Shown here piece by piece: positions 1 through 50,163 of a stretch of DNA of 64,000 nucleotides (position 1 is its first letter; the number at the start of each line of letters is the position of its first letter). The stretch is from a virus (taxonomy: Duplodnaviria; Caudoviricetes). A program made the position numbers and the translations under genes. The stretch is taken from positions 1 through 64,000 of the IMG/VR virus record IMGVR_UViG_3300013426_000029, one strand, 5' to 3'. The notes beneath the pieces were generated by a model. The model saw only the letters and a list, made by a program, of their open reading frames with translations, searched no databases and was not told the origin of the DNA.

Positions 1-72
1 AATCGGTAGACACGAGGGACTTAAAATCCCTTGGTCATTGCGACCGTGTGGGTTCAAGTCCCACTGGTGGTA
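1..72 (+). tRNA. tRNA-Leu(UAA), 5' end cut by window edge
   Basis: Anticodon arm AGGGA-CTTAAAA-TCCCT, long variable arm GGTC-ATTGC-GACC, T arm GTGGG-TTCAAGT-CCCAC. Confidence 0.92.
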
Positions 73-3372: not shown

Positions 3373-3404
3373 TTTGTAAAATTACATTAATTATAATAAA
3401 TTTG
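3373..3404 (+). promoter_or_regulatory. Bacteroidota housekeeping-type promoter
   Basis: TTTG-N20-TAAATTTG matches the -33 TTTG / -7 TAnnTTTG consensus. Confidence 0.75.
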
Positions 3405-3677: not shown

Positions 3678-3749
3678 GCTCTTGTGGAGTAATGGTTAGC
3701 TCGTCAGATTTTCATTCTGGAAATTTGGGTTCAATTCCCAACAAGAGTA
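3678..3749 (+). tRNA. tRNA-Glu(UUC)
   Basis: Acceptor GCTCTTG/CAAGAGT, anticodon arm TCAGA-TTTTCAT-TCTGG, T arm TTGGG-TTCAATT-CCCAA. Confidence 0.88.
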
Positions 3750-3815
3750 CTTTTTGTTTTCCATTTTGATTGTTATTTTATTATTATTCTTACTAGTAAT
3801 TAGTAGGAATAATAT

Positions 3816-3888
3816 GCGGAAGTAGCTCAGTTGATAGAGCATCAGCCTTCCAAGCTGAGGGTCGCGAGTTTGAGCCTCGTCTTCCGCT
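3816..3888 (+). tRNA. tRNA-Gly(UCC)
   Basis: Acceptor GCGGAAG/CTTCCGC, anticodon arm TCAGC-CTTCCAA-GCTGA; T loop reads TTTGAGC (non-canonical). Confidence 0.92.
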
Positions 3889-3928
3889 CTATAATTATAG
3901 TAAATTTTATTTAAAATTAAATCTTATT

Positions 3929-5143
3929 ATGCCAAATTTTTATAATGTAATTAAAAAACTAGCTGAAAGCGAGGCTGGTAAAAAAGTAGTAAATAAAACT
4001 ATTGGTTATGTTAGTAATCTTTTTACTAAAGGTACTAGTAAAGAAGTAAAATAGCTTGAAAGATTTATTAAGTTAGACAATAAGTTATAGAATTTATCTA
4101 AATTACGTATTTCAGATATTGACCAGAGTACTAAAGAAGGTGTTAAACTTGTAAATAAAATTCGTACCGCACGAAAAGCATTAAGTAATGCTTCTAAAGC
4201 ATAGAATACTTGGATAAAAAATAATACTGATAAAGCTACTAAAGTTTATAAAAGCGGTGCTATGGAATTTTTAAGTAATGACGCTAAAGCAAGCATTGCT
4301 GCAGCAAGAATGTAGGCTTTTAAAGACTCTGGTTTTGGAATAAATAAAAATGAACAATTTATTAAAGGACTAAAAAATCTTAAAGAAAATGGCCTTGATA
4401 AAGTTAAAAATAGTTGGAAATCAAATAAAAAATATCCAGTGATTATATCAACTATAGGTGTTCCTACATTATTATATGCATATAATCACGGTACTGGATG
4501 GACAAATACTCTAATAGATCTTATAGGTAATAATATCCGTAAAAAAGACGGAACTCCTTTATTTACAGTAAATAGAGATTTTGACGATATGTCTAGTAAC
4601 GCTCAGGCTTTTTTATAGGATGCTGTAGATAAAAAAGAAATTCCAGGATATTGGAAAACTCCAGAAGAACGTGAAGCATATTTCCAAAAACATCCAAATG
4701 ATACAATCAAAGCTAATTGGTATGGTAGATTGAATTCTAAGCTTAAAAGCAAAGGAATAACTTAGTCTGATTATAAGAAGTATTATGGAATTAATTATGG
4801 TACTTTAAGTTCTATGCCAGGTTTAACTGGATTTGGAATTAATCTTGTACCTAATAAAAATAGTAAAACTGGCTATGGCAGATTAGATCCTATTACGGCA
4901 GGTCTTTATGAAACTTAGCAATCTATGGGTTCATTTCCTCTTGCTTATGTAAAAGATGGAGTTTTAACAGATGGAGAAGGTTGGGATTTTAGAAAAGAAG
5001 ATAAACATACACCATATACTACAAGTTTACTTCAAAATTTACGTGTCTTTGCTGGTAGACACGGAACAAATGAAGCAGATGAAGTTCCAGCAATAGTAAC
5101 TTCTAATATGAAAATTCCATATAAAAAACGAGATAAAAAGTAA
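3929..5143 (+). CDS. TAG-recoded 404-aa protein, basic N-terminus and central hydrophobic segment (putative virion cargo/effector)
   Basis: One frame from ATG 3929 to TAA 5143 broken only by TAG (4052, 4088, 4202, 4313, 4616, 4763, 4916); includes ORF-track fragment 4925-5143. Confidence 0.88.
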
Positions 5144-5160
5144 TAAAATTAAGATAAATT

Positions 5161-5397
5161 ATGATAATTAATATATTAGCTATACTATTATATTGTATAG
5201 TATTACCTATATATATAGTTTTATATTATATAGTAGCTATCTTTAAAACTGGAAATATTTCATTTCTAAGTTTTACTGAAGATAGTATTTTAAATCCATT
5301 GTTTATTATTGGTATAATAGAATTAATAGTTATTGGTAATTATGTTAGATTTATTGTTTCAAAGTTGTTATGCTATTTGTGTAATAGGTGCAAATAG
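5161..5397 (+). CDS. Small membrane protein
   Basis: Two hydrophobic segments; ends at TAG, and readthrough would end at TGA 5418. Confidence 0.6.
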   Translation: MIINILAILLYCIVLPIYIVLYYIVAIFKTGNISFLSFTEDSILNPLFIIGIIELIVIGNYVRFIVSKLLCYLCNRCK

Positions 5398-5722
5398 TCT
5401 AAACTTATCCTATGGTGAGTTTTGTATTTTAATATTCTGTTATTTACAACCTATAATAATATTATTGTTTGGAATACTAAATATTAAACACTTATTTGGT
5501 AAATTGACTATAATGAGTATGATATTATATTTATGTTTTTATAGTCAATATTCTATTTCAACAGAATCATTTTATAGAATATATAGTGATCTACACCATT
5601 GGGCAATTTATATGGGAATAACATATATAGAAATAAATATATTACTTTATATTTTATTTCCAATAATCATAATTTTAATAAATTATATTCTATTTAAAAT
5701 AAATAAGAAATGTATTATTTGA
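5342..5722 (+). CDS. Multi-pass membrane protein with internal repeat
   Basis: Hydrophobic; LSYGEFCILIF...P and ITYIEINILLY...P are similar segments; ATG at 5342. Confidence 0.7.
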   Translation: MLDLLFQSCYAICVIGANSLNLSYGEFCILIFCYLQPIIILLFGILNIKHLFGKLTIMSMILYLCFYSQYSISTESFYRIYSDLHHWAIYMGITYIEINILLYILFPIIIILINYILFKINKKCII

Positions 5723-5786
5723 TAAATTATTCGGTTTAAGAAAATAGAATAATTTTATTTTATTAACTTTTAAAATTTTATTAAAA

Positions 5787-5888
5787 ATGAAACAAGTAAA
5801 GAAAGCAATTAAATGGTATTTAAAGAATGTAGAAAAATCTTATGTAAGTCTTCCTGAAGGAACTTTTCCTTATTTCTATATTAATTAA
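5787..5888 (+). CDS. 33-aa small protein
   Basis: MKQVKKAIKWYLKNVEKSYVSLPEGTFPYFYIN with AT-rich leader. Confidence 0.55.
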   Translation: MKQVKKAIKWYLKNVEKSYVSLPEGTFPYFYIN

Positions 5889-5923
5889 ATTATTTGTAAC
5901 AGTGTTAGAATATTTATTCTAAC

Positions 5924-5982
5924 TTATTGTAATATTAGCATTGAAGGTTACAACTCCTTATGAGAAAAATAGAGTACAATAA
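5924..5982 (+). ncRNA. Twister ribozyme #3 (type P1, no P3)
   Basis: UUAUUG-UAA-UAUU-AG-CAUUG-AAGG-UUAC-AA-CU-CCUU-AUGAGAAA-AAUA-GA-GUA-CAAUAA; P1 UUAUUG/CAAUAA, P2 UAUU/AAUA, P4 AAGG/CCUU, T1 UAC/GUA, T2 AG/CU; ends 9 nt before ATG 5992. Confidence 0.85.
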
Positions 5983-5991
5983 AAAATAAAT

Positions 5992-7062
5992 ATGAAGATT
6001 CCAACTTCAGAAGTAAATAAATTAATTTCATTATTAAGAAATAGTAAAAGTATACAAAATTTAACAAATAAATTAGAATCATCTTTATCTAAAGCTATAA
6101 ATTTAAATAAAGTTGATTTATTTGGTAAATTCTTTTCACAAAAAGAAAGATTTAATAGAGATAAAACATCTTATGATAAAATAGTTAAATATTTAACTAA
6201 TAATAATTTAGATTTTAATATTGCTACTAAGTTTAAAGATAAATACCCAGTAGTATAGTCTTATATGACTGAAAGGACAACTTTTAGACCAAACTTAGGA
6301 AATGAAGTTCTTGATATGTTTAAAAATAAGGGTAGAACTATTGAGACAACTATACCTAAAAGAAGTAAAGTAAGTCAAGAATACAATGATTTTACTAAAC
6401 AGATTAATGAATTAAGAGGTGGTCTTAAAGATTATTTTTAGTCAAAAGCATATCGTAAAAAATTACGAGATATACTTTTTAATAATCCAAATGATAGAAA
6501 ACAGGAAGGAAAATATATAAATGATATATTAAATACATTAGATGGAGTTGCAATAAATATAGGTCATAGCAATAAAAATCTTGGAGGCACTGCTAGTTTT
6601 GGTACTGTTTATTTAAATAAAAATTCTACTTTTGATGGTAATCCATTTACACTTCTCCATGAACTTATACATGCTTCCAAATAGTATGGAAATTATAACA
6701 TAAAAGGCAAATATCTTGATGCACATAATAGTGATATTGCAAATAGAGTTATGGATTATAATGATATGATTGGAGATAATTTATTTTCATCAGTAAATTT
6801 AAGTGCAGCAACTCCTGCGTAGCAAAAGTATATTAAATATCTAACAAACGGAAGGGAATTATCAGCAAATTTTAATCCAATACAAGCATTAATAGAAAAA
6901 AATGGTTGGTCTCCTAAACAAGCAGTAAGGCTTATTAAAGAAAGAAATTATTTAGGAAACACAACAATTAAAAATTATTATAATGTATTTGGAGAAAAAA
7001 ATGTAGAACGTTTAATATAGAATGTATTAAAAAATGGAGGTAAATTGATTAAAAGAAAATGA
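5992..7062 (+). CDS. TAG-recoded 356-aa zincin-like (HExxH) protein with C-terminal KNGGKLIKRK
   Basis: Frame open to TGA 7062 with TAG at 6256, 6439, 6682, 6820, 7018; TLLHELIHAS motif plus downstream GRELSA. Confidence 0.88.
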
Positions 7063-7208
7063 ATAAATTATTTGATATAACACCAGAACAAGAAAAAATA
7101 ATTGATAAATATTTAAAAGATATAGAATATTATAAAAAAAATAAAGAAAAAATAGATAAAGAAATAAAAGAAAATAAAAATATTAAATTTATCCCTTATT
7201 CACTTTAA
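7059..7208 (+). CDS. 49-aa charged protein coupled to the zincin gene
   Basis: ATGA overlap, no TAG, uses CAA for Gln. Confidence 0.6.
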   Translation: MNKLFDITPEQEKIIDKYLKDIEYYKKNKEKIDKEIKENKNIKFIPYSL

Positions 7209-7212
7209 TATT

Positions 7213-8547
7213 ATGGCAAAAATATGGCATGGTTTTACATACGATCCTAATAAAAAACGCTGGTTTAAAGCTAATGGATAGCAAGTAACATTGGGTAAAC
7301 AGATTAAAACTTCTGATGGTAAATATTATTAGTTAAATTCTGATGGTACTATTACTTATGCAGGAAGTGTTTCAGGAGGTGTAGATTAGAATTTTGTAAA
7401 TACACAAAAAAAGTATAAACGCAACGTAGACACTACATTATTAGATAGGTCTATGCGTTCTGGACTTATTGGTTCAAAACAAGGTTGGAGGTTTGATACA
7501 AACGCTAAAAACATAAAAATTAAAGAAGTAAATGGTAGACGATATTATTTAGCACCTAGTACGTATGATGGTAAAAATACTTGGTTTAGTTTTGATTCTG
7601 GTTTGAATATAGCATAGGATAAAGTCCAATAGTAGAAATTAATTGAACAAAAGAAAAATAAAATTCTTGGTCGTTCTAATGGAACAGGTTGGTGGGATTC
7701 TATAAAAAACGATGGAATAGCAGCTGGAGCAATTAATCATGTTTTAGATAGTGCAAATATTAATAATTAGTGGTTACGAAGTGCTGTTAATTTAGGATCT
7801 CTAGGTTTATATATGCTACCTGGCGTAGGTCAAGCTTTATCTTTAGCTGATGCTGGACTTGCTGCAGCTAGAGGCGATTGGGGTAATGCAGCATTAAATC
7901 TTGCATTTATGGTTCCCGGTGCACGTTTTCTTAAAGGTGCTAAAACTTTAAGTAAAGTTCCTATGCTTAGTAAATTAGGTAAAGTTTTTGGTGGAAGCGG
8001 AGCTACAAGATTAGAAAAAATGCAAATAAATGCAATTAAAAGTAGTCTTCCAAAATATGCAAAAGTTCAGAACAAAACAATTTTATCTCATATAAGAAAT
8101 AAATCATACGCGTGGACTCCAAATGTTACTAAAAAAGTTTTATCTCAAGCAGATCCGTATTTACACACTTCTGTAAAAAATTTATTTGGTTTTACAAAAG
8201 GAAATAATAAATTTTTTAATGCAACATTTAATCCAAATACTACAGGCTTTGGAGGAAATGTTAAACGCGCGTTAGGTTATGCATAGCCTGCAGCACTTAT
8301 AGGTGGTGGTGCATATGGATTTTATAGAGATAAGCAAGCAGAAAATGAGGCTAATACATGGTATCAAAATAATCAAAAACAAGATATTGAAAAGAATCAT
8401 TCTGCATATGTATTAGGTAGAATGTCTGACGATGAGATAAAGAGATTTTTAATTGATTCACATTAGATGACTCAAGAAGATGTATCTAAATTAACACCTT
8501 AGCAAATTAGTGATTTTAAAAATTTAGTATTAAACAACGAAATCTGA
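7213..8547 (+). CDS. TAG-recoded 444-aa protein with pre-toxin-like hydrophobic hairpin
   Basis: ATG 7213 to TGA 8547 with 9 TAG codons (including CAA-TAG-TAG at 7627-7635); LPGVGQALSLADAGLAAARGDWGNAALNLAFMVPG. Confidence 0.88.
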
Positions 8548-8711: not shown

Positions 8712-8783
8712 TGCCTTATCGTATAATGGTTATTACACGAAATTTTGGATTTTGTAATCTAAGTTCGATTCTTAGTAAGGCAA
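8712..8783 (+). tRNA. tRNA-Gln(UUG)
   Basis: Acceptor TGCCTTA/TAAGGCA, anticodon arm CGAAA-TTTTGGA-TTTTG, T arm CTAAG-TTCGATT-CTTAG. Confidence 0.85.
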
Positions 8784-8799
8784 CAATTTTATTAACTTT

Positions 8800-8832
8800 A
8801 TCCCTGATTAGGTCGCTCTAGTCAGGGATTTT
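8800..8832 (+). terminator. Hairpin/terminator after tRNA-Gln
   Basis: ATCCCTGATTAG/CTAGTCAGGGAT followed by TTT. Confidence 0.6.
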
Positions 8833-11864: not shown

Positions 11865-13626
11865 ATATAGATAATACAATTCGTGATATATTGGAGAAAT
11901 ATGATTTTAATAAGATAATGAAGCTTATTAATATTGAATTTCCTAATATAAAAGTATACGAAATAATGATGTATACTTTATTACTTTTAGAACAATCTAA
12001 AGATATTAATTGTGATATTGAATCATGGTTTAATGATAAGATTGTAATACAAGTAAATTATAGTGATAAATACATATTAATACACGTAATAATATGAAAT
12101 TAAATAATAGAGAAATATCTGCAATTGCAGATAAAGTTCATAATGAGCTAAGTAATGAATATACTATAGAATTACAAAGAGTAATTCACGAATATATTCC
12201 AAGTGCTAAATATATTAATACTCAAAAATTAATTGAAAAAGCTTTAAATATTTCTAAAGAATATAATCAACTATTACAAAGATGGGGTGAAATTAGAAGA
12301 GAACTTAATTTAGGATGCTATTATGATTTAGATAATATAGAAAGAGATAGTGATAAAATTCTTGAGAATATTATATTAAAAGAGCGTCCTATTAAAAACG
12401 TTCCTAATAAAGATAATATTGTAAATGATATTATTATTGCTAATATTGATCCTGAATTTAATGTAGATAATTTTATTAAAGAAGCTATAGAAAAATGGAA
12501 GATAAGTTTATAAACAAAGTAAAGAATGTGATTAGTAGAAAACCATTAAATGCAGAAACAGCATATACATTATCTGTTTATGGACAACGTATGTCTAAAG
12601 ATAATGTATATCAAAAAAGTATTTCTGATATTGAAAGTCGTATTGAATTAAGAAGTCAAAATAAAGGTACTTCTATACTTTACGAATTTGATAATAACTT
12701 TCCTACTATGGGAGAAGATATTATGAAATACTTTAAAGATTTAGGTTATATTGTATTAATGATAGATTCTTCGATTTTTAAAGAAATTAAAAATCCTAAA
12801 TTATTAATTAGTTGGGAGCGATGATAATAGAGGAAAAAGATTTTATACTTACTTGTAATCAAGGTTATTGTTGGGATTTAGAATTATTACAAACTATAAA
12901 GCCTAAAGGTAAACCGGAACGACAAGAATTTCAAATTGAAGGGTATTCTATGCCTTTAGAAAGATGCTTACAACATATCGTAAATTATCGCCTAAACAAA
13001 AAACAAGATACATATTCTTTAAAAGAATATTTACAATATTATAAAGAAGAAGTAAATAATATTAAAAAATTAATTAAAAATGAAGACTGATGTAAATAAT
13101 TCTAAATTGATGATTGAGCTTGGAATTCATCCTAAAGATTTGGAACCTCGTGATGAATCTGTCTGGACAAAAACAGACAAAGAAAGAAAAAAGTTAAAGA
13201 AGCTAAGAACTAAAGAAAAAATTCATTTTAATTCTAAACCTAAATCTTATATTCCATTAACTGCTAAATTAGTTGTTTATCTTAAAAAGAATAAAATATT
13301 TCCTAATACAACTTATTCTTTTATTTGTGGTCCACACGATGTCATAGAAATTATGGATCAATTTAAACAAATCATTAAAGGTAAATTAGTTAATTTAGTA
13401 AGTAAATATAAGTATAATAATATAGAATATGAATCAGACCAAAAACCTGTATGAATATAAAATAAATGTATATAAATACTGGGAAAATGGTTTTGGTTTA
13501 GTTAATAGTATAGAATTATATTCTACTAAACCTTTAAAAATTAAAAATAAATCGATTTTAAGAAAATATTCTGATTATATAATAGAAAAGGAAATTTATG
13601 AGAACTCACATTCAGCACTTACATGA
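11861..13626 (+). other. Run of six coupled hypothetical CDS (11861-12097, 12094-12513, 12495-12824, ~12821-13090, 13080-13454, 13429-13626)
   Basis: Tightly overlapping standard-code ORFs; no recognisable family. Confidence 0.7.
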
Positions 13627-19226: not shown

Positions 19227-21506
19227 TGGCTGAATTAATTGCAATTGTAGGAGAGAGTGGTCTTTAAGGAATTTTAACATTTTTATTTTGCCATAAATCA
19301 AATATTTTTATTATATAATGTATTATAATCATAATATAATACAAGTATGAAAAGAACTTATAAAAATTTAACGAAATTACACAAAAACCTGGAATTTATA
19401 TTATTTCTTGCACAGAGACCGATAAAGTATATATTGGGGAAAATTTAGATATTGATGCACGATAGGTTATGAAAGATGATACCGCAGGCCACTTTAACAA
19501 ATCCGTTTAAAATTGGAAAGCCTCGATTCAAATTATTGTGAAATAATTGAGGTAATCAATTACGAACTATATGAATAGCATAAAAGTAATATAGACGTTT
19601 AACGACTAGCAGATAGATAGCTAAATTAATTCTGCCACGAAATACGGACATTTTATAAATTGTATGTGAATATAAAATATAAAGTGAAGAGATAGTCTAA
19701 TCTACATATTAATGAATATAAATTGTAGAGTGTAAGATAAAGAGCTTACAGTTAATACAGTATGAGCGGAAAAACAACAAGTATTAGGAATTTGAATCCT
19801 AAAGAAACTTTTATTATTTCTACTACTGGTAAAAGACCTGGAATTAGGGGAGCTAAAAAATTATACCCTTCTGTAGAATTAACTAAAGATTCATTTAAAG
19901 GTAACTTTTATGAAACCTCTAATGTTGATAATATAGGAAAGATGATGGCATTAGTTTCTAGTAAAAGACCTGAAATAAAAGTTATTATTGTTGATGATTA
20001 ATAAAAAGCCACAAAATATTTTGAAAAGTCATAATATATTATATTTAATGTAATAAAAATATATAAATATAATGATATGAATAAAAAATATAATGACTTT
20101 GAAATTACTGAATTACATTCAAAAGGTTTAACAGATAAAGAAATTGCAGAAATTTTAGGAGTAAATCCTAATAATTTAGCAAGAAAAAGAAATAGATTAG
20201 GTTTAAAACCTAATAAAAATATCAGAGAAACTTATATATTAACTAAAGAAGAGTTAGAAATCATTTGGGGTACTCTTTTAGGAGATTCTACAATTAGATA
20301 TGTTCATAAAGGATGTAAATTTCCAAATTTAACTTTTATACACGGATTAAATCAGAGAGAATATTTTGATTTTTTATCTAATAAATTAGTTAATTTAAAA
20401 TTATCAGTTAAAGAATACGATTCTAAATATATAAGAACTAACAGAGAAATTGCTAAAAGATTAGTATTTACTGGAAAGAACATGAAATGTTTAGTAGATA
20501 TATATAATTCTTTTTATCCAGATAATAAAAAGATAATTCCTATGGCATTTGTAGAAAAATATTTTACAAAAAGGAGTTTATATTATTTATTTATGGATGA
20601 TGGAAGTTATGATGTTTCTAAAAATAGTTATATAATAAACACGCAATGTTTTTCATACGAAAATCTTCAAGAATTTGTTAGTTTTTTATTTAAAAAATTT
20701 AATTTAGAATTTAATATAAAAACTGATAGAAGTTTATATTTAAAACATGTTTCTAATGATATTATGTATAAAATTTTATCTGATAATAATGAATGTGATT
20801 CTATGAAATATAAATATGGTGATAGTCATCATAAAACTCCGTTAAACAAGGAAACTCCTGAAAAGGACAATCTTGTGCTAAACCCTCAAGAAATTGAGGA
20901 AAAAGCTAAACGACTAGAAGTGATGCCTAACGAGAAAGACGAGGCTATAAAATCTTCCACGAAAGCGGGGCACTGTTCAAAGTAAAATTCGTGAGAATAT
21001 GAAATGAATTAAAGATATAGTCTGAACTATACATATAAATAAAAGTATAGAATTGGAAGATAAAGAGCTTCCAAGATAACAAATTGTATCAATATATACA
21101 AGCATTTGAATCAATGGATCGAGTAGACGAGAAAGGGTTCTCAAAGTTTACTGATATGGCGAAACATGCCTATGAAGTTTTAAAGAAAGGAAAGAGTCTA
21201 AGGGATGATCTTTATGTATGTATTTTAACGCATAGTGAAAATATAGGGGATAATATTAATCCTTATTATAAGATTAAGACATTAGGCAAACTCCTAGATT
21301 CAGTAATTACTTTAGAGGGATTGTTTACGTATGTATTATTTACAAAAATTATAAAAGATCCAACTACTGATAAAATTATGTATAAGTTTATAACCAATTC
21401 GGATGGAACTTGTACTGCTAAAACCCCAATTGGTTTATTTGAAGACAATCTAATTGATAATGATCTTGATTTTGTTATTAAAAAGATAAAAGAATATAAT
21501 GAGTAA
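19226..21506 (+). CDS. AAA/Sak4-like ATPase (229 aa) split by two group I introns; exons 19226-19261, 19765-19998, 21087-21506
   Basis: Splicing restores Walker A GESG|SGKT and Walker B IIVDD|YQY in frame. Confidence 0.9.
19262..19764 (+). mobile_element. Group I intron 1 (in Walker A) with decayed GIY-YIG gene
   Basis: Exon ends in U, intron ends in G; IGS GCCACUUU pairs with exon AGAGUGGU; P7 GACUA/UAGUC; AAGAGAUAGUC J8/7 motif. Confidence 0.9.
19347..19510 (+). pseudogene. Frameshifted, truncated GIY-YIG homing endonuclease remnant
   Basis: KPGIYIISCTETDKVYIGENLDIDAR is out of frame with ATG 19347. Confidence 0.8.
19999..21086 (+). mobile_element. Group I intron 2 (after Walker B) carrying a LAGLIDADG gene
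   Basis: IGS GUCAUCA pairs with exon UGAUGAU; P10 UGAUA/UAUCA; P7 GACUA/UAGUC; ends ...AAAUUG. Confidence 0.92.
20077..20985 (+). CDS. Intron-encoded LAGLIDADG homing endonuclease with N-terminal HTH
   Basis: IIWGTLLGDS and LYYLFMDDGS motifs; GLTDKEIAEILGV HTH. Confidence 0.9.
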   Translation: MNKKYNDFEITELHSKGLTDKEIAEILGVNPNNLARKRNRLGLKPNKNIRETYILTKEELEIIWGTLLGDSTIRYVHKGCKFPNLTFIHGLNQREYFDFLSNKLVNLKLSVKEYDSKYIRTNREIAKRLVFTGKNMKCLVDIYNSFYPDNKKIIPMAFVEKYFTKRSLYYLFMDDGSYDVSKNSYIINTQCFSYENLQEFVSFLFKKFNLEFNIKTDRSLYLKHVSNDIMYKILSDNNECDSMKYKYGDSHHKTPLNKETPEKDNLVLNPQEIEEKAKRLEVMPNEKDEAIKSSTKAGHCSK

Positions 21507-22857: not shown

Positions 22858-23880
22858 ATGGACTTTTCTATAAAACCAAAAATTACTAAATCATTAATTT
22901 TATCTGAATTTTCTGAGGAACAAATAATGTCATATTATCTAAATATTCCAATTAAGAAAGGATTATTTAGAAGTCCACTAAGAAAAGATATTAATCCGAC
23001 TTGTAGTTTATATCGTAATAAATCTGGGACTTTAATATTTAAAGATTTTGCAACTGGTCAGTATTTAAATTGTTTTGAAGTTGTACAAGCTAAATATAAC
23101 TGTAATTATTTTGAAGCTTTAAACATTATTGCAAATGATTTTAATATAGTACATAATAAAATTCTTCATAAAAATTCAGATAAAATTATTGATAATTCTA
23201 TAAAAATAAAAAATAATGAAATAGCTAAAATACAAGTAGAAATACAAAACTTTACACCTTATGAATTAAAATGGTGGAAGAAATATGGAATAACTTTAGA
23301 TTTACTTAAAAAGTATAAAGTATTCTCTTGTAAGCATGTATTTTTAAATGGAAATATAATTGCTGAATCAAGTCAAAATTGTCCAATATTTGGATATTAT
23401 GGTGGTAATATCAAAAAGAATAAAGAAAAGATTGAATTATGGAGATGCTATTTTCCAAAAAGGAAATCTTATAGATTTATTACTAATTGGCCAAGTAAAA
23501 AGATTCAAGGTTTCGATCAAATAATTGGTAAAGGTAAATTATTAATAATTACTAAGAGTATGAAAGATTTATTGTGTTTTAGATCAATAGGATTAGAAGC
23601 TATTGCCCCTAATAGTGAAACGCAATTTCTAACTGATTCTATACTTAATAATTTAAAACAAAACTATAAACATATTATAGTTTTATTTGATAATGATCAA
23701 ACAGGTATTTCTTTTATGAATAAAATTAAAAAGAAACATCCAGACTTATTATATACTTGGATTCCTTTTAAATATAAAGCTAAAGATATTTCTGATTTCT
23801 ATAAAAAGTATGGTAGAGATTTCACTATTAAAACAATTAAAGACTATATTATATGGCTAAAAAAAGTTAGAAAGATTTAA
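22858..23880 (+). CDS. DNA primase (Toprim)
   Basis: SPLRKDINPTCS, FKDFATG, ITKSMKD, LFDNDQTG, KDISD. Confidence 0.88.
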   Translation: MDFSIKPKITKSLILSEFSEEQIMSYYLNIPIKKGLFRSPLRKDINPTCSLYRNKSGTLIFKDFATGQYLNCFEVVQAKYNCNYFEALNIIANDFNIVHNKILHKNSDKIIDNSIKIKNNEIAKIQVEIQNFTPYELKWWKKYGITLDLLKKYKVFSCKHVFLNGNIIAESSQNCPIFGYYGGNIKKNKEKIELWRCYFPKRKSYRFITNWPSKKIQGFDQIIGKGKLLIITKSMKDLLCFRSIGLEAIAPNSETQFLTDSILNNLKQNYKHIIVLFDNDQTGISFMNKIKKKHPDLLYTWIPFKYKAKDISDFYKKYGRDFTIKTIKDYIIWLKKVRKI

Positions 23881-24419
23881 ATACATCTTGTAAATGTACT
23901 TATAAGGACGGTACAACTCAAGAGTTTACATCTATAGAAGAAGCTAGTTCAATTACTGGAATATCTATTCCCAGTATTAAGATTAGATGTAATAAACCTG
24001 GAACTTTAGGTAAAGATAAAACTGCTTTTGAATGGTTAGATAAAAAGACAGAACTTTACTATAGAGCAAAAAAGAGTCGTAATAAAGGGTCGGCTTTAGA
24101 AAATGATGTAGTGAACAAACTTAAAGAACTAGGTTATGATGGAGTATGTCGATCTGCTGGAGAAAGTAAGCACTTAGATAATGCTAAAGTTGATATTGCT
24201 GATATTAATCATGAGCTTGAGGTAGCAATTCAATGCAAGCATTATGCTAATACCCCAAATTATTTCAAAATTAAAGACGAATGCACTGATAATAGAGATT
24301 TTGTTTTAATATGGAAGAAAAGTGCTGAAGCGGGTACTATTAGTAAAGGAACTGTTGCTATTATGGATGTAAACTTCTTTTATAAATTATTAGATACATA
24401 TCATAAATGTAAAAAATGA
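23853..24419 (+). CDS. Hjc-like Holliday junction resolvase with N-terminal NUMOD1/HTH-like domain; single TAG at codon 6
   Basis: ATG GCT AAA AAA AGT TAG AAA..., then open; EFTSIEEASSITGIS (HTH-like) and SRNKGSALE...VDI...IQCK (PD-(D/E)xK). Confidence 0.82.
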
Positions 24420-27344: not shown

Positions 27345-28859
27345 ATGAAATCAGAAACTATTAATAAATTAATTAAACATTTAAAAGCAATTAAAGCCGC
27401 TGATATTACAATTAATCAGTATGAAAAAATAAACAACTTAAGTTCTACATTTATTAAAAATAAAATATATAGTATTAAAGTTGCCCATGAAGATGAAACA
27501 ATTTCTGACGAAGATTATAATACTATAATGAATTTATATGAATCTGTTAAACAAAAACATAGCAGAAATTCTGATATTGAAGACACTGATAATCGTTCTG
27601 AAGTAACTTTAGATAGAGATGACAATGGAAGAATAACTCAATACAATTTTAGTGTTAGTATAAGAGATAAAGTCCCTCTTACTGGACATTTTACTAGAGA
27701 TGAAATGAGTCTTATTTATAGACTTTATTCTAGTTATGGTAGTAATATTACTCAGAGGGAAGTATCTAGATTTTTTCCAGAATATTCTCTTTGTGATTTT
27801 AAAAGAATATTGAGAACTTTTAATATCACTAAAGCATCTGCCCCATTTCCTCAACATATTATAGAGGAGAATGATAAATCAACTCTTCTTGATATGCAAT
27901 TTAGAGAAAAAGAAAACGATTTCCTTAAATCTTATGAAGCTGATAAAGTTAGACAAATGGATCTGCAACTTAAGAAATACATGAAGGAAAATTATGATTT
28001 AAAGAATCAAATCCAATCATTTTCTAATATTAATCTAAATCTTACAGGCGGAATATCTGTAACACCTAAGCCAAGTAATTCTAAGAAAGATTTATTTATT
28101 TATCTTTCTGATATGCATATTGGAGCAAGTGTAGGAGAAAATTCTCTTTATAATAATACTTATGATGCTAAAGAAGTTCAGAATAGATTAAATAAAATAT
28201 ATAATACTGTATATAATGCCGATGGTTATGATTCTATAATTGTATGTAATATAGGAGATTCATTAGATGGGGAATATAATCAAACTACCAGAGGAGGACA
28301 TTATCTTCCTCAAAATATGGATGAAAAGCAACAAATTAAATGTTTCTTAGAATCTATGTATGGGTTCTTCACTAATTTATCTACTATACCTCATAATGAA
28401 ATTAAATATTATGCTGTAGGAGAATCTAATCATGGTGGAGTATATGAATATGCAAGTCAAATCGCACTAAGTAAAGTATTAGATACAATTAATGTTAAAA
28501 GTACAGTATGGGATAAGTTTATAGGTCATTTTATACATAAGGGGCATACCTATATATGCTCTCATGGAAAAGATAATAAAGATATGTTTAAAAATTGGCC
28601 TCTTACTCTCAACGATAAAACTGAAGGCATTATCAACGAATATATGGATATAAATAATATTTCAACAGCTACTGTAATTAAAGGAGATTTACATCAATCT
28701 GCAATTACGTATGGTAAAAGATTTGTTTATAGGTCTGTAGGTTCATTATTTGGAAGTAGTGGTTGGATTATGAAGAATTTTGGTAATACTCATGCTGCTT
28801 GTGATTATTCTATTGTTGATGAAAATCAATCATTAGATGGAAGAGTAATACTTAACTAG
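27345..28859 (+). CDS. Calcineurin-like metallophosphoesterase with N-terminal extension
   Basis: LSDMHIG, IGDSLDG, SNHG, SHG, GDLH motifs. Confidence 0.85.
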   Translation: MKSETINKLIKHLKAIKAADITINQYEKINNLSSTFIKNKIYSIKVAHEDETISDEDYNTIMNLYESVKQKHSRNSDIEDTDNRSEVTLDRDDNGRITQYNFSVSIRDKVPLTGHFTRDEMSLIYRLYSSYGSNITQREVSRFFPEYSLCDFKRILRTFNITKASAPFPQHIIEENDKSTLLDMQFREKENDFLKSYEADKVRQMDLQLKKYMKENYDLKNQIQSFSNINLNLTGGISVTPKPSNSKKDLFIYLSDMHIGASVGENSLYNNTYDAKEVQNRLNKIYNTVYNADGYDSIIVCNIGDSLDGEYNQTTRGGHYLPQNMDEKQQIKCFLESMYGFFTNLSTIPHNEIKYYAVGESNHGGVYEYASQIALSKVLDTINVKSTVWDKFIGHFIHKGHTYICSHGKDNKDMFKNWPLTLNDKTEGIINEYMDINNISTATVIKGDLHQSAITYGKRFVYRSVGSLFGSSGWIMKNFGNTHAACDYSIVDENQSLDGRVILN

Positions 28860-29000
28860 AAATGGAATTATTATTTATAGATGTAAAAAACGAAAAGATT
28901 CTTGGTAAATTGTTTATTGATTGTTCAAAAATCTTTCAAGAAAAAGAGTTAGATAAACTAAAAGAAAATTTAAAAAAATTAATATAATAATTAAAGAAAA

Positions 29001-33996: not shown

Positions 33997-35882
33997 TAAT
34001 TAAAAACAATATAGTATTTGTTTATGATATAGAAATATTTCCTAATTTATTTCATTGTACTATAAAAGATACAGAATCTAAACAATTATATTTCTTTGAA
34101 ATATCTGCGAGAAAGAAACAGGCAAAAGAGCTTGTTTCTTTCTTTTTGACTAAAGGTAGATTATTTTGTGGATATAATAATATACATTATGACAATCCAA
34201 TTATTAATTTTTTAATTGATAAAAAAAATTCTTTAGATAGTATCTCTTGGTATCATATGTGTAATGTATTATTTCAATTAAGTAATTTAATTATAAATAG
34301 TGAACCAGGAAAATATAACAAATGGAGTAAGTGGAAGTATGCTAATAATTATCCTACACTTGATTTATTAACTATGTTATATTCTTCTAAACTAAGAGTT
34401 GGTTTAAAAGAAATGCAAATAACAATGAAATTTCATAATGTTCAAGAGTATGATGGAGATTTTAGTAAACCATTACCTATATCGGAAATAGATCATCTAA
34501 TACAATATAATATTAATGATGTAGAAAGTACTGAAGAATTACTATATAGATGTAAAGCAGATATAGATTTAAGATTAGGTATTGAACAAGAATACGGAGT
34601 TGATGTTCTATCTAAAGATGGAATGACAATTGGTATGGAGATTATTAAACAGAAGTATCTTGAAAGAACTGGAAAAGAATGGAAAGATATTAAAGATCTA
34701 AGAGATGCTTGTGATTTAATTCCATTAAAAGATGTTATATTTAATAATATACATTTTAAAACTAAACAATTACAAGATATTCTATCTTGGTTAAAAACAT
34801 TAACTGTAGACCCAGGTAGAAAAGGATTAGAAAAACATTTCTTATTAGATAATCTTGAAATATCTTTAGGTGTAGGTGGTGTTCACTCTGTTAATACTCC
34901 TACTATATTTAAAGAAGATGATACTTGGAGTATTAGTGATGTGGATGTTGCTTCGCTATATCCAAGTTTAATTTGTAGTTATAATCTATATCCACCACAA
35001 TTAGGAGAAGCGTTTCTTGATGTTTATTCAGGTATTAGAAAAGAAAGATTAGAAGCTAAAAAGAATGGAGATACTGTAAAGAATCTTACATTAAAGTTAA
35101 GTCTTAACGGTCTTTCTGGAAATCTTCAAAATGCATATAATTTTTGTTATTCACCACGAACTGTTATGAAAATCCGAATGAATGGTCAACTAATGCTATT
35201 AATGTTGGCTGAAAGATTACTTGGGATAGGATGTAAGCTAATTCAATTAAATACTGATGGTATATTCTTGAAATGGCCTAAAGATAAAAGAAAGGACTTT
35301 GAACAAGTAATGAAGGATTGGGAAAAAGAAACTAAATTAACTCTTGAGGAAGATCAATATGAAGCATTTTATCAATTTGCAATTAATGATTATTTAGCTA
35401 TATCAAGAGGATATTCGGAATCTAAAAACCCTAAATTACTTAAAAAGAAAGGATTATTTATAGATACAGTACATCTTGGTAAAGGTATGCAACCAATGAT
35501 AATACCTAAAGCTATAAATAATTATTTTGCTAATAATATTCCAGTTGAAGAAACAGTATACAATGATAAAGATATTAATAACTTTATTACTTATCAAAAG
35601 GTGGCTAAAAAATTTAGAATAGAATATAACGGAGAGTTAATAACTAATACAAATAGATATTATATCTCTATCAATGCTCCTTATTTATTTAAATGTGAAG
35701 TAGATACTAATGGCGCAAGAAGTAGATATATTAATATGCTTAAAGGGCATGGTGTAATTATAGTCAATAATTTAGATGAAATTAAAGAATTTCCTAAAAA
35801 TATTGATTATAAATATTATATAGCAGAAGCTAATAAGATTATACAAAAATTTAAATGTGTACAATTGAGCTTGTTTGAATGA
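33993..35882 (+). CDS. Family B DNA polymerase
   Basis: Exo YDIE and GYNN..YD; polymerase DVASLYP, KLSLNGLSG, NTDG. Confidence 0.95.
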   Translation: MIIKNNIVFVYDIEIFPNLFHCTIKDTESKQLYFFEISARKKQAKELVSFFLTKGRLFCGYNNIHYDNPIINFLIDKKNSLDSISWYHMCNVLFQLSNLIINSEPGKYNKWSKWKYANNYPTLDLLTMLYSSKLRVGLKEMQITMKFHNVQEYDGDFSKPLPISEIDHLIQYNINDVESTEELLYRCKADIDLRLGIEQEYGVDVLSKDGMTIGMEIIKQKYLERTGKEWKDIKDLRDACDLIPLKDVIFNNIHFKTKQLQDILSWLKTLTVDPGRKGLEKHFLLDNLEISLGVGGVHSVNTPTIFKEDDTWSISDVDVASLYPSLICSYNLYPPQLGEAFLDVYSGIRKERLEAKKNGDTVKNLTLKLSLNGLSGNLQNAYNFCYSPRTVMKIRMNGQLMLLMLAERLLGIGCKLIQLNTDGIFLKWPKDKRKDFEQVMKDWEKETKLTLEEDQYEAFYQFAINDYLAISRGYSESKNPKLLKKKGLFIDTVHLGKGMQPMIIPKAINNYFANNIPVEETVYNDKDINNFITYQKVAKKFRIEYNGELITNTNRYYISINAPYLFKCEVDTNGARSRYINMLKGHGVIIVNNLDEIKEFPKNIDYKYYIAEANKIIQKFKCVQLSLFE

Positions 35883-36733
35883 AGGCATATACTATTACTA
35901 AAAGTATTACTAATAGAGATAATAATGCATTACGTATTTATTTTAAAGATATAAATAAACATTCATTATTATCTAAAGAAGAAGAATTAGATATTGTTAA
36001 AAAAATAAAATCTGGAGATGAACAAGCTAAGAATAAATTAATTACTTCTAATTTAAGATTTGTTATTTCTATTGCTAAAAAGTATCAAAATAATGGTTTA
36101 GATTTAAATGATTTAATTCAAGAAGGTAGTCTTGGATTAATAAACGCAGTTAATTTCTTTGATGAATCTAAAGGATATAAATTTATATCATTTGCAGTTT
36201 GGTATATACGACAAGCAATTACTAAAGCATTAACAGATACTTGTAGAGTAGTAAGAGTTCCTTTAAATCAAATTACAAATGTAAATAAAGTTAAACGTGC
36301 TATTAATAAAGTAGAATGCCAAACAGGTAAGAAAGCTTCTATTGAAGAAATATCTAAATTAACTAATCTTTCTTCTTCTAAAATTAATAATACTGAAACC
36401 GCTATAAAAACTTCAGTATCTTTAGATACACCTATTTCTGATTCTGAAGGAGATTGTTTAATTAATATTATTCCAGATAAAGAAACGCAAGAGACAGATT
36501 ATTTAGTAGAAAAAGACGATAAAAATAAAGCAGTTGAATATATATTATCCAAATTATCTCCTAGAAAAAGAGATATAATTAGAATGTCATTTGGTATAGG
36601 AATGTATCCTATGCTAAATGATGATATTGCTAATTATTTTGGAATAGGTAGTGAAAGAGTTAGACAAATAGAAAAAGAAACAATTGCCTTTTTACAAAAG
36701 AAATATAAAAACAAACTTAAAGACTTATTATGA
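35879..36733 (+). CDS. Sigma70-family factor of the Bacteroidota primary-sigma type
   Basis: ITKSITNR N-terminus, NLRFVISIAKKYQ, DLIQEG, KFISFAVWYIRQAI, SLD, ERVRQIE. Confidence 0.93.
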   Translation: MKAYTITKSITNRDNNALRIYFKDINKHSLLSKEEELDIVKKIKSGDEQAKNKLITSNLRFVISIAKKYQNNGLDLNDLIQEGSLGLINAVNFFDESKGYKFISFAVWYIRQAITKALTDTCRVVRVPLNQITNVNKVKRAINKVECQTGKKASIEEISKLTNLSSSKINNTETAIKTSVSLDTPISDSEGDCLINIIPDKETQETDYLVEKDDKNKAVEYILSKLSPRKRDIIRMSFGIGMYPMLNDDIANYFGIGSERVRQIEKETIAFLQKKYKNKLKDLL

Positions 36734-41595: not shown

Positions 41596-42009
41596 ATGAA
41601 GACTAAAAAATTAATTCTTAAAAATACTTTTAGTACAGGTAATCATGGTTGGGGTAATGGGTATGTAGCTGTACCTCCAGAACATCCTTTATATGGTAAA
41701 TCATATACGGATGAAGATTATCCCGATTTTAATGTACATGGTGGTATTACATTTACAGAACCTGTTATTTACAATGAAATTACCTTTGTAAGTAAAACTA
41801 AAATTAGAGAGAAATATATAGGTAAGAGAGCATATCAACTACAATATGGTATTAGTCTTGATGGTGAAATACCTGATAATTGGTGGCTAATAGGATTTGA
41901 TACTTGTCATAGTAATGATACTAATCTTAATTGGCCTAAAGAAAGAGTTATTAATGAAACTAATTATTTACAAAAAAGAATAAATAATTTATTTAATAAA
42001 AATGAATAG
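41596..42009 (+). CDS. Conserved phage hypothetical protein
   Basis: GYVAVP..HP, VHGGITF, W.IGFDT.H motifs common in phage ORFs. Confidence 0.75.
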   Translation: MKTKKLILKNTFSTGNHGWGNGYVAVPPEHPLYGKSYTDEDYPDFNVHGGITFTEPVIYNEITFVSKTKIREKYIGKRAYQLQYGISLDGEIPDNWWLIGFDTCHSNDTNLNWPKERVINETNYLQKRINNLFNKNE

Positions 42010-42181
42010 TACTGAAGAATTAGTTATAATGGATTACAATACAGGGAGTATTATTATTTGTAAAAACCCACCAGAAGATAAAAATACAGAAGAAATTCTA
42101 AAACATTTAGGCTTAGATATTAATAATTGTACTGTTATGTTCTGTAATAACCCAAAAATTAATTACGTGAACTATGATTAA
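42002..42181 (+). CDS. 59-aa protein, paralog of 10116-10295 and 30139-30342
   Basis: ELVIMDYNTGSIII...EEILKHLGL; not in the ORF track. Confidence 0.7.
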   Translation: MNSTEELVIMDYNTGSIIICKNPPEDKNTEEILKHLGLDINNCTVMFCNNPKINYVNYD

Positions 42182-48305: not shown

Positions 48306-48496
48306 AAAAAATATTATTATTAAGTTTACTTGGATTATGTAGTTGTGATATAGTACTTACAGAAGAACCTATAACTGTAAGATATTATCCACAACCATAT
48401 TATTATATTCCAGCTAAACCAATTCATCATCCTCCTAGGGTTTATCCATTAGATCCTCCAGGAAGATATTATCATTCTAAACCTCATAGACGATGA
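48302..48496 (+). CDS. Small Pro/Tyr/His-rich lipoprotein
   Basis: MKKILLLSLLGLCS-C lipobox. Confidence 0.7.
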   Translation: MKKILLLSLLGLCSCDIVLTEEPITVRYYPQPYYYIPAKPIHHPPRVYPLDPPGRYYHSKPHRR

Positions 48497-48954
48497 TTGA
48501 TATTAATAAACTTATTAGGGAAGCAATGAAATCTAATGATAGAGATGCATTGCGAACTTATCAAAACTTAAAAGCAGAAATACAATTAGTAAAAACTGCT
48601 AAAAATGCTAAAGAATATACAGAAGCTGTTGAGATACAACTGTTGAGTAAAATGTGTAAAAAATTAGAAGATGCAATTATAAGCTTCTCAGACGCTGGTA
48701 GAGACGATTTAGTTTCTTCTTATACAATTGAATTACATATACTACAAAAGTTGCTTCCTAAGCCTGTATCAGAGTCAGAGATATGTTCTGCTATTATATT
48801 ATGGTGTGCTAAAAATGGGTATTGTGATGGTGTTACTGCTGATTGTTCAATCCCAAAAAAGGAAATGGGAATAACTATAAAAGCCATTAAAGATAAATAT
48901 CCTAATGCCGATGGTAAATTAATTGCTAAAATTGTAAAATCTTATGTTGTATAA
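48493..48954 (+). CDS. GatB/YqeY domain protein
   Basis: AMKS.D, AGRDDL...E..IL..LLP, KEMG, ADGK motifs. Confidence 0.88.
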   Translation: MIDINKLIREAMKSNDRDALRTYQNLKAEIQLVKTAKNAKEYTEAVEIQLLSKMCKKLEDAIISFSDAGRDDLVSSYTIELHILQKLLPKPVSESEICSAIILWCAKNGYCDGVTADCSIPKKEMGITIKAIKDKYPNADGKLIAKIVKSYVV

Positions 48955-49426
48955 ATTTATATCTGAGGAACCTTTTTATTATTATGGTTCAAAGTTTGCT
49001 GAAAAGGGGAATATTTTAGAAACAAAAGGTAGAGATACAATTATTAATTTAGATACAGGTTGTAAAATAGAAGGACTCGATGAAGTCATTGGACAACTTG
49101 TAGACAGTTGTGAATTTTATCCAGAAGATATACATTCAATAGTAAGTAAATCGGGTGAAACTACAGCTACAATAGACAATGTTAATCATCCTAAACATTA
49201 CACATGGTTAAAAGATAAGTGTGGAATTGAGGTAATTGATATAGTAAGACACATGAACTTCAATTTAGGACAAATATTAAAATATATTCTAAGATTAGGG
49301 CATAAAAATGATAATAACTTTAGTAACTATGAGAAGATATTATCTGATTTGCATAAAGCTGAATATTATTTAAAAATGGAAATTAATAGGGTAGATAAAT
49401 TATGCAAGAACAATGGAAATCATTGA
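48944..49426 (+). CDS. DUF3310 (SaV-like) protein
   Basis: DNVNHPKHY, GIEVID, KYILRLGHK, DLHKAEYY. Confidence 0.85.
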   Translation: MLYKFISEEPFYYYGSKFAEKGNILETKGRDTIINLDTGCKIEGLDEVIGQLVDSCEFYPEDIHSIVSKSGETTATIDNVNHPKHYTWLKDKCGIEVIDIVRHMNFNLGQILKYILRLGHKNDNNFSNYEKILSDLHKAEYYLKMEINRVDKLCKNNGNH

Positions 49427-50163
49427 GTAAATACAAGGGTTTAATAGAAGTTAGTACTCTTGGTAGAGTTAGAAGATTACATAGAAAATCAGATATATTG
49501 AAACCTAAACTGGATAAAAGAGGATACTTATGTGTTCATATACGAATATCTAAATTGGGGATAAATAAAATGGTTAAAATACATAGGTTAGTAGCCGAAG
49601 CTTTTATACCTAATCCAAATAATTTACCTATTGTAAATCATAAAAATGAAATAAAAACAGATAATAGAGTAGGAAATCTTGAATGGTGTACCCATAAATA
49701 TAATGTAAATTATGGAACAGGATTAAAAAGAAGAGCTTATAATTCTAGAAATCAAGTACACAAAAGTTGTCCTATATTACAATATTCATTAAATGGAGAG
49801 TTTATACAAGAGTTTCCTTCATTTAAGGAAGTACAAAGGTATTTAGGTAAATCATATAGTAATGTTTGGAATGTATGCAATGGTAGGGGGATTAGTGCTT
49901 ATGGATATAAATGGAGTTATAAATACATAGAAGGTAAAAAAATAGAAATTCCTAATTCCTATACTTGGTTTAAAAAGAATTATGGTTTAGATTTATCAAT
50001 AATTTTACAAGACTTATCATTTGATATAGCTTGTGCCATTAAGTATATTCTTAGGTCAGGCCATAAGTCTGAGCAAGATGTACCTGATAAAGCTAAAGAA
50101 ATAGAAGATCTTAAGAAAGCTATTTGGTATATTAATGATAGAATTAAAGAACTAGAACAGTGA
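49402..50163 (+). CDS. NUMOD4-HNH-NUMOD1 homing endonuclease fused to a second DUF3310 C-terminal half
   Basis: EVSTLGRVR, HRLVAEAFIPNP, VNHKNE..DNRV.NLEW; tail KYILRSGHK...EDLKKAIWYI. Confidence 0.9.
   Translation: MQEQWKSLSKYKGLIEVSTLGRVRRLHRKSDILKPKLDKRGYLCVHIRISKLGINKMVKIHRLVAEAFIPNPNNLPIVNHKNEIKTDNRVGNLEWCTHKYNVNYGTGLKRRAYNSRNQVHKSCPILQYSLNGEFIQEFPSFKEVQRYLGKSYSNVWNVCNGRGISAYGYKWSYKYIEGKKIEIPNSYTWFKKNYGLDLSIILQDLSFDIACAIKYILRSGHKSEQDVPDKAKEIEDLKKAIWYINDRIKELEQ

Follow-up and report, generated by a model that had tools for sequence, protein, structure and literature searches.

The stretch analyzed here, hereafter the window, comprises the first 64 kb of a single viral contig of 91,133 bp (IMG/VR record IMGVR_UViG_3300013426_000029) with a GC content of 26.6%. 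Near its left end, inside a block of transfer RNA (tRNA) genes and on the strand that carries the replication genes, lie three open reading frames (ORFs) at positions 3929-5143, 5992-7062, and 7213-8547 that encode 404, 356, and 444 amino acids (aa) and are complete only if TAG is read as a sense codon. A preliminary description of this DNA had pointed to these ORFs, and re-translation bears it out, with seven and five in-frame TAGs in the first two, as had been counted, and 10 instead of nine in the third. The island is best read as a second, compact recoded block, with genes that are gated by the code and translated late, placed on the replication-gene strand of a gut crAss-like phage.

All parts of the island point in the same direction (+ strand). 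At its upstream edge stand the genes for tRNA-Glu (ttc; 3678-3750) and tRNA-Gly (tcc; 3816-3889), both detected by ARAGORN and scoring 64.6 and 66.6 bits with the Rfam tRNA model. The second ends 39 nucleotides (nt) before recoded gene 1 (product P0001), the first TAG of which is codon 42. Gene 1 is followed by a gene for a small membrane protein of 78 aa with two predicted transmembrane (TM) segments (5161-5397), which contains no glutamine (Gln) codon and itself stops on TAG, and by a gene for a small multi-TM protein of 126 aa, counted from the ATG at 5342 (5342-5722), with three Gln codons, all CAA; the two ORFs overlap by 56 nt. Hydropathy windows peak at 2.7 and 2.1 in the 78-aa protein and at 2.6 and 2.8 in the 126-aa protein. 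Recoded gene 2 (P0002; first TAG at codon 89) has its stop overlapped by the start (ATGA) of a gene for a charged protein of 49 aa (7059-7208) with one Gln codon (CAA). Recoded gene 3 (P0003; first TAG at codon 23) comes next, and 164 nt past it lies tRNA-Gln (ttg; 8712-8784; ARAGORN, 58.5 bits with Rfam), followed by a terminator-like hairpin with a T-run at 8800-8829 (13 pairs, five of them G-C) that is the likely end of the transcription unit. The setting among tRNAs (Glu and Gly before, Gln after) and the arrangement of the small genes, with two membrane proteins after the first large ORF and an ATGA-coupled 49-aa protein after the second, had thus been described accurately.

Along the island the gaps are 39, 17, 269, -4, 4, and 164 nt. 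Between positions 1 and 12000 there are 12 terminator-like sites where 2.2 are expected, and the hairpin at 8800-8829 is the strongest of the region, whereas the + strand between 3929 and 8700 has just one weak site of five pairs (4536-4552). Because of the co-orientation, the short gaps, the strong hairpin at the end, and the lack of a strong one inside, the island is likely one cassette or operon-like unit that extends from tRNA-Glu to the terminator. We saw no compositional break at the island and no unusual fold in the spacer at 5720-5995 (z = -0.15). A sigma-70 scan gave fewer sites than in shuffled sequences, and a 15-mer that is repeated in the + arm (see below) is not present ahead of the recoded genes.

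Translated with table 11, the three ORF stretches break into fragments of 41-157 aa, and code-11 gene callers recorded pieces of 34 and 88 aa. This is what would be expected from decaying or nonfunctional ORFs, in which the TAGs are true stops of pseudogenes or of chance frames in an AT-rich genome. Against such decay, 404, 356, and 444 codons run without a TAA or TGA interruption at this GC content, and the three proteins have full-length homologues at 30-67% identity with dozens of invariant columns (35-70 in the alignments of families 1 and 3). For P0001 we found 12 homologues (E values of 1e-266 to 8e-69) on contigs of up to 175 kb, with one further weak match left out of the alignment, and for P0003 nine homologues of 405-415 aa (1e-44 to 1e-53). 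For P0002 a word search recovered only an identical copy, while phmmer over 1.84e9 representatives gave 15 matches at E<=1e-3; 10 of them were aligned after four fragments of 62-88 aa and one multi-stretch match of 862 aa had been dropped. Exact copies of P0001 and P0002 are encoded on four and 13 other contigs, of up to 128 and 148 kb, respectively.

The homologues also inform on the meaning of TAG. Gln at the TAG positions of homologues had been named in the preliminary description as a point to check, and it is indeed found there: Gln occupies 54 of 197 homologue cells in the 22 TAG columns and 77 of 244 in the CAA/CAG columns, against a background of 3-5%, with the limit that these homologues were seen as proteins and that some of their Gln may itself be TAG read by a code-15 gene caller. 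At individual positions, the TAG at residue 230 of P0001 corresponds to Gln in 11/11 homologues and that at residue 330 in 9/11, the TAG at residue 40 of P0003 in 9/9, and the TAG at residue 231 of P0002 in 8/10. These alignments indicate that TAG is read as Gln in the trio. Since the trio has homologues of near-equal length, invariant columns, and identical copies on other contigs, we are highly confident that the three ORFs are real, code-gated genes, and the Gln in TAG columns, far above background, leaves decay with next to no probability.

The codon habit of the island was compared with that of the two arms of the contig. The + strand up to ca. 54 kb holds replication and nucleotide-metabolism genes, whereas 13 large ORFs of the minus arm (54,031-91,052) stay open only if TAG is translated, and each of them has between 3 and 70 TAGs. 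TAG makes up 22 of the 52 Gln codons in the trio (42%) and 257 of the 583 in the 13 minus-strand genes (44%). In contrast, when TAG is taken as sense, the + strand has 57 ORFs of 100 aa or more ahead of 54 kb, and 49 of these are free of TAG. The exceptions are the trio itself, one ORF that lies within nrdD in a different frame, two TAG-ending genes with back-up stops, one ORF with TAGs ahead of a standard start, and an ORF at 23853-24419. Among 95 standard-code ORFs, 59 were counted after removing four trio fragments, two island genes, and 30 short ORFs, and they have no TAG among 332 Gln codons, which is partly true by construction, as TAG had been called as a stop. With equal TAG shares, the trio groups with the virion arm and shares its coding habit, not that of its own neighborhood. 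The code status of the three small genes is uninformative. They contain zero, three, and one Gln codons, and with only four in total the absence of TAG is unremarkable (P = 0.11 at the trio TAG share of 0.42). Thus, the statement that the small genes have no internal TAG is correct and carries little weight. The distance of about 45 kb that had been given between the trio and the recoded late arm holds only in window coordinates, for the path through the window, because the contig is incomplete.

Two further observations concern TAG in the + arm. The ORF at 23853-24419 (188 aa, after the primase gene) has a TAG at codon 6 and its first ATG/GTG/TTG start at codon 87; with its helix-turn-helix (HTH)-like N terminus, it may be a fourth TAG-dependent gene, located in the replication arm. 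Only three + strand genes outside the trio stop on TAG, and all have a second stop one to eight codons farther on (5395-5418, 28857-28886, and 42007-42015), so that a code switch would add seven, eight, and one residues. The first of them is the 78-aa gene of the island, in which read-through of the TAG adds seven residues, to 5418. Back-up stops of this kind are known in other large crAss-like phages, according to the available text of PMC12386605.

None of the six island proteins, and none of 30 homologues scanned singly, matched a family significantly in Pfam, PHROGs, NCBIfam, or PADLOC, and the trio did not match endonuclease families. The profiles of the three families retrieved nothing at E<=1 from all PDB chain sequences (the inclusion of the crAss001 virion chains in that set was unchecked) save for one chance row. 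By blastp on the ORFs of the contig, the recoded proteins are not paralogous to one another or to any other ORF (best non-self E = 0.22), and none of the three has a strong TM helix. P0001 combines a variable helical N terminus with a conserved C-terminal domain (183-404) rich in invariant polar residues; its AlphaFold2 model has a predicted local distance difference test (pLDDT) score of 59 overall and of 80-93 over residues 220-350. P0003 starts with a domain of beta-hairpin repeats (1-145; pLDDT 70-85, poor elsewhere), followed by an invariant Gly/Ala-rich segment, PGVG...DAGLAAARGDW. Foldseek related the repeats weakly, and without significance, to choline-binding, glucan-binding, and CROP repeat proteins, with CbpF, alternansucrase, and LytA among them (E values of 0.026-0.2, TM scores of 0.08-0.12), and the Pfam family GW was also a weak match (E = 0.12). 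Both P0001 and P0003 are orphans. We gave no weight to fold rows at noise level that named ADP-ribosyltransferases, anthrax lethal factor, and clostridial toxin repeats.

P0002 is the most legible of the three. It has an HExxH motif at 223-227 that is kept, as H-E-x-x-H, by P0002 and 9 of the 10 aligned homologues; H227 is invariant, and H223, E224, and E289 are each present in at least 90% of the 11 rows. In gluzincins, the HExxH motif is accompanied by a Glu farther downstream, and here the near-invariant Glu 289, 62 residues on, would be the third zinc ligand. Because of the motif and the conserved Glu, P0002 is likely a zincin-type metallopeptidase. The protein weakly matched phrog_87, "metallo-protease," with E = 6.8e-4 over 67 residues and, below the cutoff of 22 bits, the Pfam family Peptidase_M78 (E = 0.18; 12.1 bits). 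The resemblance to zincins (Peptidase_M78/ImmA-IrrE; PHROG 87) stops at curated thresholds, which are not reached; there is no solved relative by sequence and no HTH partner of the ImmA/IrrE type nearby. The family also has a conserved C-terminal tail, L-K-x-G-G-K-(L/I), encoded at 7036-7062 in gene 2.

Together, the trio look like late-made proteins. With first TAGs at codons 42, 89, and 23, host termination at UAG yields only stubs, and if the island is a second block of code-gated genes, the full-length proteins would appear only once UAG-decoding capacity is present. The block would then be translated with the late virion and lysis genes despite its place in an otherwise TAG-free arm. That the large proteins are made only after the code switch had already been proposed, and the need for UAG decoding and a TAG share like that of the minus arm support it by inference; the Borges preprint (10.1101/2021.08.26.457843) likewise reads genes of this type as late-translated. 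The small genes, located past those TAGs and one of them coupled by ATGA, would share the late timing and not precede it.

As to function, we favor, with a probability of roughly 0.35 to 0.4, a late module directed at the cell envelope, in the form of a divergent cassette associated with lysis. Such a cassette would comprise a peptidase, a protein whose repeat domain resembles those that bind cell walls, and two membrane proteins the size of holins. The suggestion comes from the HExxH motif of gene 2, the choline- or cell-wall-binding-like repeats of gene 3, and the small TM proteins, which have at least two TM segments each and adjoin an enzyme gene, their resemblance to holins being one of size and topology only. 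The PHROGs scans gave no recognizable lysis gene elsewhere on the 91-kb contig, which we count in favor of a lysis role.

Several points weigh against this late envelope module. None of the six island proteins matched a peptidoglycan-hydrolase, holin, or spanin family, the peptidase call depends on a motif plus subthreshold matches, and P0001 has no fold match among the matches listed, where helical rows dominated and the C-terminal domain was barely probed. It is from codons alone that we infer the late timing. No suppressor tRNA(CUA) was found by ARAGORN and Rfam among the five tRNAs on the incomplete contig; according to the portion of PMC10136315 available, only ca. 40% of TAG-recoded genomes show a suppressor tRNA or a similar device. 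Canonical lysis genes may sit in the ca. 57 kb missing from the contig. The published crAss-like maps, as far as given in the available text of the Borges preprint (10.1101/2021.08.26.457843) and PMC10136315, keep the recoded genes for structure and lysis together as one unit, so that a lysis cassette at the position of the island would be unusual. Promoters add nothing: in a scan with the Bacteroidetes -33/-7 consensus, a motif appeared at 3373-3404, and we discarded it as evidence, given that the motif occurs four times in the window where 4.9 are expected.

The equal TAG usage of the trio and the virion arm would also suit virion cargo. Here the trio would be made late, packed in the capsid or tail as crAss001 gp45/gp46 are, and ejected into the next host, where the peptidase and the Gly/Ala-rich protein would help to cross or remodel the envelope. 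Crassvirus virions hold several cargo proteins, in a set that varies between groups, according to the available text of Bayfield et al. (2023; PMC10172136). The trio resembles gp45/gp46, as described there, in being mid-sized, partly helical, and of low-confidence fold, in its late-type codons, and in a central hydrophobic or Gly-rich segment, and it differs in that the profile search detected no sequence similarity to them and in that its genes lie outside the virion gene block. There are also hints within the contig. The G-G-K tail of the gene 2 family recurs at the C termini of a 956-aa (GG at 940-941) and a 111-aa (GG at 102-103) minus-strand protein, and K/Q/N-x-G-G motifs occur near the N termini of, or inside, three neighboring minus-strand proteins, with only two loosely similar x-G-G sites in 91 + strand ORFs; the motif was, in this count, defined after it had been seen. 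The central hydrophobic Gly/Ala segment of P0003 resembles one in a 571-aa minus-strand protein. With hhalign, the same segment of family 3 aligned with the N-terminal extension of one gene 2 homologue (E = 1.9e-4, probability of 47%, 48 columns) and not with that of a second such homologue. However, the trio is encoded on the opposite strand and at a distance from the virion module, and blastp shows no similarity to any minus-strand protein. The hhalign comparisons to the 571-aa (E = 0.33, 17 columns) and 956-aa (E = 0.034, 10 columns) proteins are not significant, and the near-empty PDB search and the lack of a strong TM helix speak against cargo as well. We take the links to the virion arm as leads only and regard cargo as a plausible but unlikely role; the envelope or lysis module is preferred. 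As an observation on the minus arm itself, K/Q/N-x-G-G motifs are found near the termini of five consecutive proteins (contig positions 81406-90057), and the shared motif could be a processing or targeting signal.

The preliminary description had favored a polymorphic effector/immunity system timed by the genetic code, in which the small partners are translated early and the toxic large effectors only after the switch, perhaps to be packaged and injected. The adjacency of large and small genes is real and one pair is ATGA-coupled, as in polymorphic toxin/immunity systems; the small genes have no TAG, the protease motif of gene 2 could be a toxic activity, and 1 of the 11 members of the gene 2 family has a subthreshold match to the Pfam family eCIS_core (E = 0.008). 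Unlike those systems, the island has no conserved N-terminal trafficking domain, no swapped C-terminal toxin modules, and no paralogous cassettes. Pfam, PHROGs, NCBIfam, and PADLOC gave no toxin, immunity, defense, or secretion family for the island proteins or their homologues, although a toxin of unknown fold may have escaped these scans, and there are no paralogues and no orphan cassettes on the contig. Variability runs the wrong way. Variability of the C termini across relatives had been named as a point to check, and families 1 and 2 are most conserved there, with mean pairwise identities of 0.50 in the N-terminal half versus 0.70-0.76 in the C-terminal half of family 1 and of 0.16 versus 0.34 in family 2. 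Family 3 has 0.73 versus 0.47, with all nine homologues covering the C-terminal part and its invariant C-terminal motif, that is, without domain replacement. As judged from these alignments, such conservation runs counter to an architecture of conserved head and variable toxin or, at best, has no bearing on it. The early timing of the partners is not supported, on two grounds. One is the count of four Gln codons given above. The other is the gene layout. Through translational coupling and nonsense polarity, premature termination is expected to lower downstream expression. In this unit the three ORFs reach their first TAG at nt 4052, 6256, and 7279, termination there leaves 0.8-1.3 kb untranslated, and the first TAG of gene 2 lies 806 nt ahead of the coupled 49-aa gene. 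With the small genes downstream of early TAGs in one unit, their output before the switch should therefore fall, not rise, which argues for partners that would be expressed late together with the large genes. We consider the effector/immunity system very improbable; the toxin/antidote idea, from which the excitement about this locus came, is unsupported.

A bolder form of the late envelope module, to which we give little credence, would be a lysis clock that is timed by the code and built into the tRNA block. Until the code switches, stops at codons 42, 89, and 23 and the ca. 0.8-1.3 kb untranslated stretches behind them would silence the unit by polarity, down to and including the downstream tRNA-Gln. 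Afterward, the membrane proteins would appear along with the peptidase and the protein with wall-binding-like repeats, and the holin-sized 78-aa protein would gain its seven-residue tail. With its TAG stop, that gene would then be to "dual-stop" control what the holin/antiholin pair is to dual-start control.

How far the island departs from known systems can be judged from published recoded phages. In crAss-like phages, late structural and lysis genes are TAG-to-Gln recoded in one block after a strand switch, with lysis genes as the families most biased toward TAG, while the other block can be read under either code, according to the accessible parts of four sources (PMC7886860; 10.1101/2021.08.26.457843; PMC10136315; 10.1101/2022.06.29.495998). 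The present phage agrees with the code-15 late blocks described there in the use of in-frame TAG for Gln, in the code-neutral replication arm, in the TAG share, and in a translation thought to wait for the code switch. It differs in having a recoded block of 4.6 kb on the other strand, inside a tRNA block, among TAG-free genes. From the text available, contigs having three or more code blocks were discarded in Mgcod (10.1101/2022.06.29.495998), so that islands of this kind would go unreported there. Several recoded modules are described, in the accessible part of 10.1101/2021.08.26.457843, for the Jade, Sapphire, Agate, and Lak clades, and in Jade a standard-code module of tRNA, synthetase, and release factor genes lies directly upstream of a recoded lysis cassette. 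Separate recoded modules, with standard-code tRNA genes directly upstream on the same strand, are thus common to both cases, but those are other phage clades, and here ordinary Glu, Gly, and Gln tRNAs flank the genes and no lysis family was matched. The same source, as far as available, reports a recoded intron endonuclease in the standard-code half of Agate. Recoded homing endonucleases share with the trio their isolated place, as genes with in-frame TAG or TGA, in an early arm that is free of such codons elsewhere, whereas the trio are orphans of 356-444 aa in an operon-like arrangement with small membrane proteins. Among relatives, the distant, TAG-recoded MT835492.1, the closest in GenBank by a late-arm protein (30% identity), has no homologue of the trio and has a GIY-YIG-like ORF with two TAGs (12704-13201) between tRNA-Met and tRNA-Tyr on its replication-gene strand. 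In large "Zeta" crAss-like phages, a tRNA block stands at the start of the forward replication-gene block, and the lysin and holin genes are recoded, according to the available text of PMC12386605.

DNA of closer relatives was not recovered. Megablast of the region and tblastn of the trio and two homologues found nothing among GenBank phages, protein-pattern scans of IMG/VR found none, and neither a scan of GTDB genomes nor degenerate DNA patterns applied to collections of viral, metagenomic, and genomic sequences gave a relative. The sole metagenome match was rejected, being a high-GC bacterial contig in which the peptide occurred by chance in an unrelated enzyme. In a limited search of the literature, in partial texts, we found no description of a recoded non-endonuclease island in a crAss-like replication arm.

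The island shows that stop-codon recoding in a crAss-like phage extends beyond a single strand-defined late block, contrary to the assumption behind current descriptions and annotators that work by blocks. A short recoded island can go unnoticed in the "standard-code" arm, where code-11 gene callers leave stubs of 34-88 aa, and TAG must be read as Gln to bring out its three small families of proteins, a candidate zinc peptidase among them. These families are restricted to relatives of 130-175 kb and would be natural targets in a search for the genes by which large crAss-like phages achieve lysis or ejection. To the biology of code switching, the island adds a case and not a principle, as a positional variant of a known phenomenon.

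The phage is assigned to the crAss-like, TAG-to-Gln recoded phages by sequence, because its DNA polymerase is 50-53% identical to Crassvirales polymerases, such as that of "uncultured phage cr10_1" (Suoliviridae), and because of the relatives of its late-arm proteins. The only matches of a 1515-aa minus-strand protein were two records of gut phages that lack annotation (24-30% identity). PHROGs gave matches for 24 of the 70 + strand ORFs scanned, among them two helicases, a primase, DNA polymerase, ligase, a sigma-factor-like protein, NrdD, dUTPase, and thymidylate synthase, and none for the 13 recoded minus-strand ORFs; capsid, portal, and terminase genes were not detected on the 91-kb contig. 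The first base of the contig falls within a class II tRNA-Leu(taa) gene, truncated at its 5' end (window 1-72), and recoded minus-strand genes are found at its other end. Joining both ends does not rebuild the acceptor stem of this tRNA, so the assembly is not closed there. Homologues of the island proteins come mostly from phage contigs of 130-175 kb. With identical proteins on larger contigs and unclosed ends, this contig is therefore incomplete.

Other features of the + arm deserve mention. The sigma-factor-like gene (phrog_351, E = 4e-66) lies at 35879-36730, directly after the DNA polymerase gene. A gene for a Sak4-like annealing protein is split into an N-terminal (19762-19998) and a C-terminal (21114-21503) piece by a LAGLIDADG endonuclease ORF at 20077-20985, which suggests an intron or intein. 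At 48493-48951 there is a match to a GatB/YqeY-type "tRNA amidotransferase" PHROG, which could bear on the charging of a Gln-inserting suppressor. Adjoining it, at 48944-50160, a nucleotide-kinase-like gene seems to be either split by an HNH endonuclease or joined to it. Beyond the window, on the minus strand, a LAGLIDADG homing-endonuclease gene (contig positions 64048-64743) separates recoded ORFs of 321 and 2401 aa, which are probably one split giant gene. The endonuclease gene has no TAG among its seven Gln codons (P = 0.017 at late-arm usage).

Upstream of the island, the tRNA block contains tRNA-Arg at 1065-1139 (ARAGORN/Rfam, as for the truncated tRNA-Leu) and two twister-P1-like ribozyme matches at 177-240 and 1273-1336, with 58.3 and 49.7 bits (E values of 3e-11 and 8e-9), both below the gathering score of 67.2 bits. 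The repeated 15-mer mentioned above, TTATTGWGAAATAAT, has four exact copies, all on the + strand (96-110, 1186-1200, 1249-1263, and 19533-19547). In this way, a unit made of a tRNA, the 15-mer, a ribozyme match, and an ORF is repeated ca. 1.1 kb apart, with the small ORFs starting at 277 and 1373.

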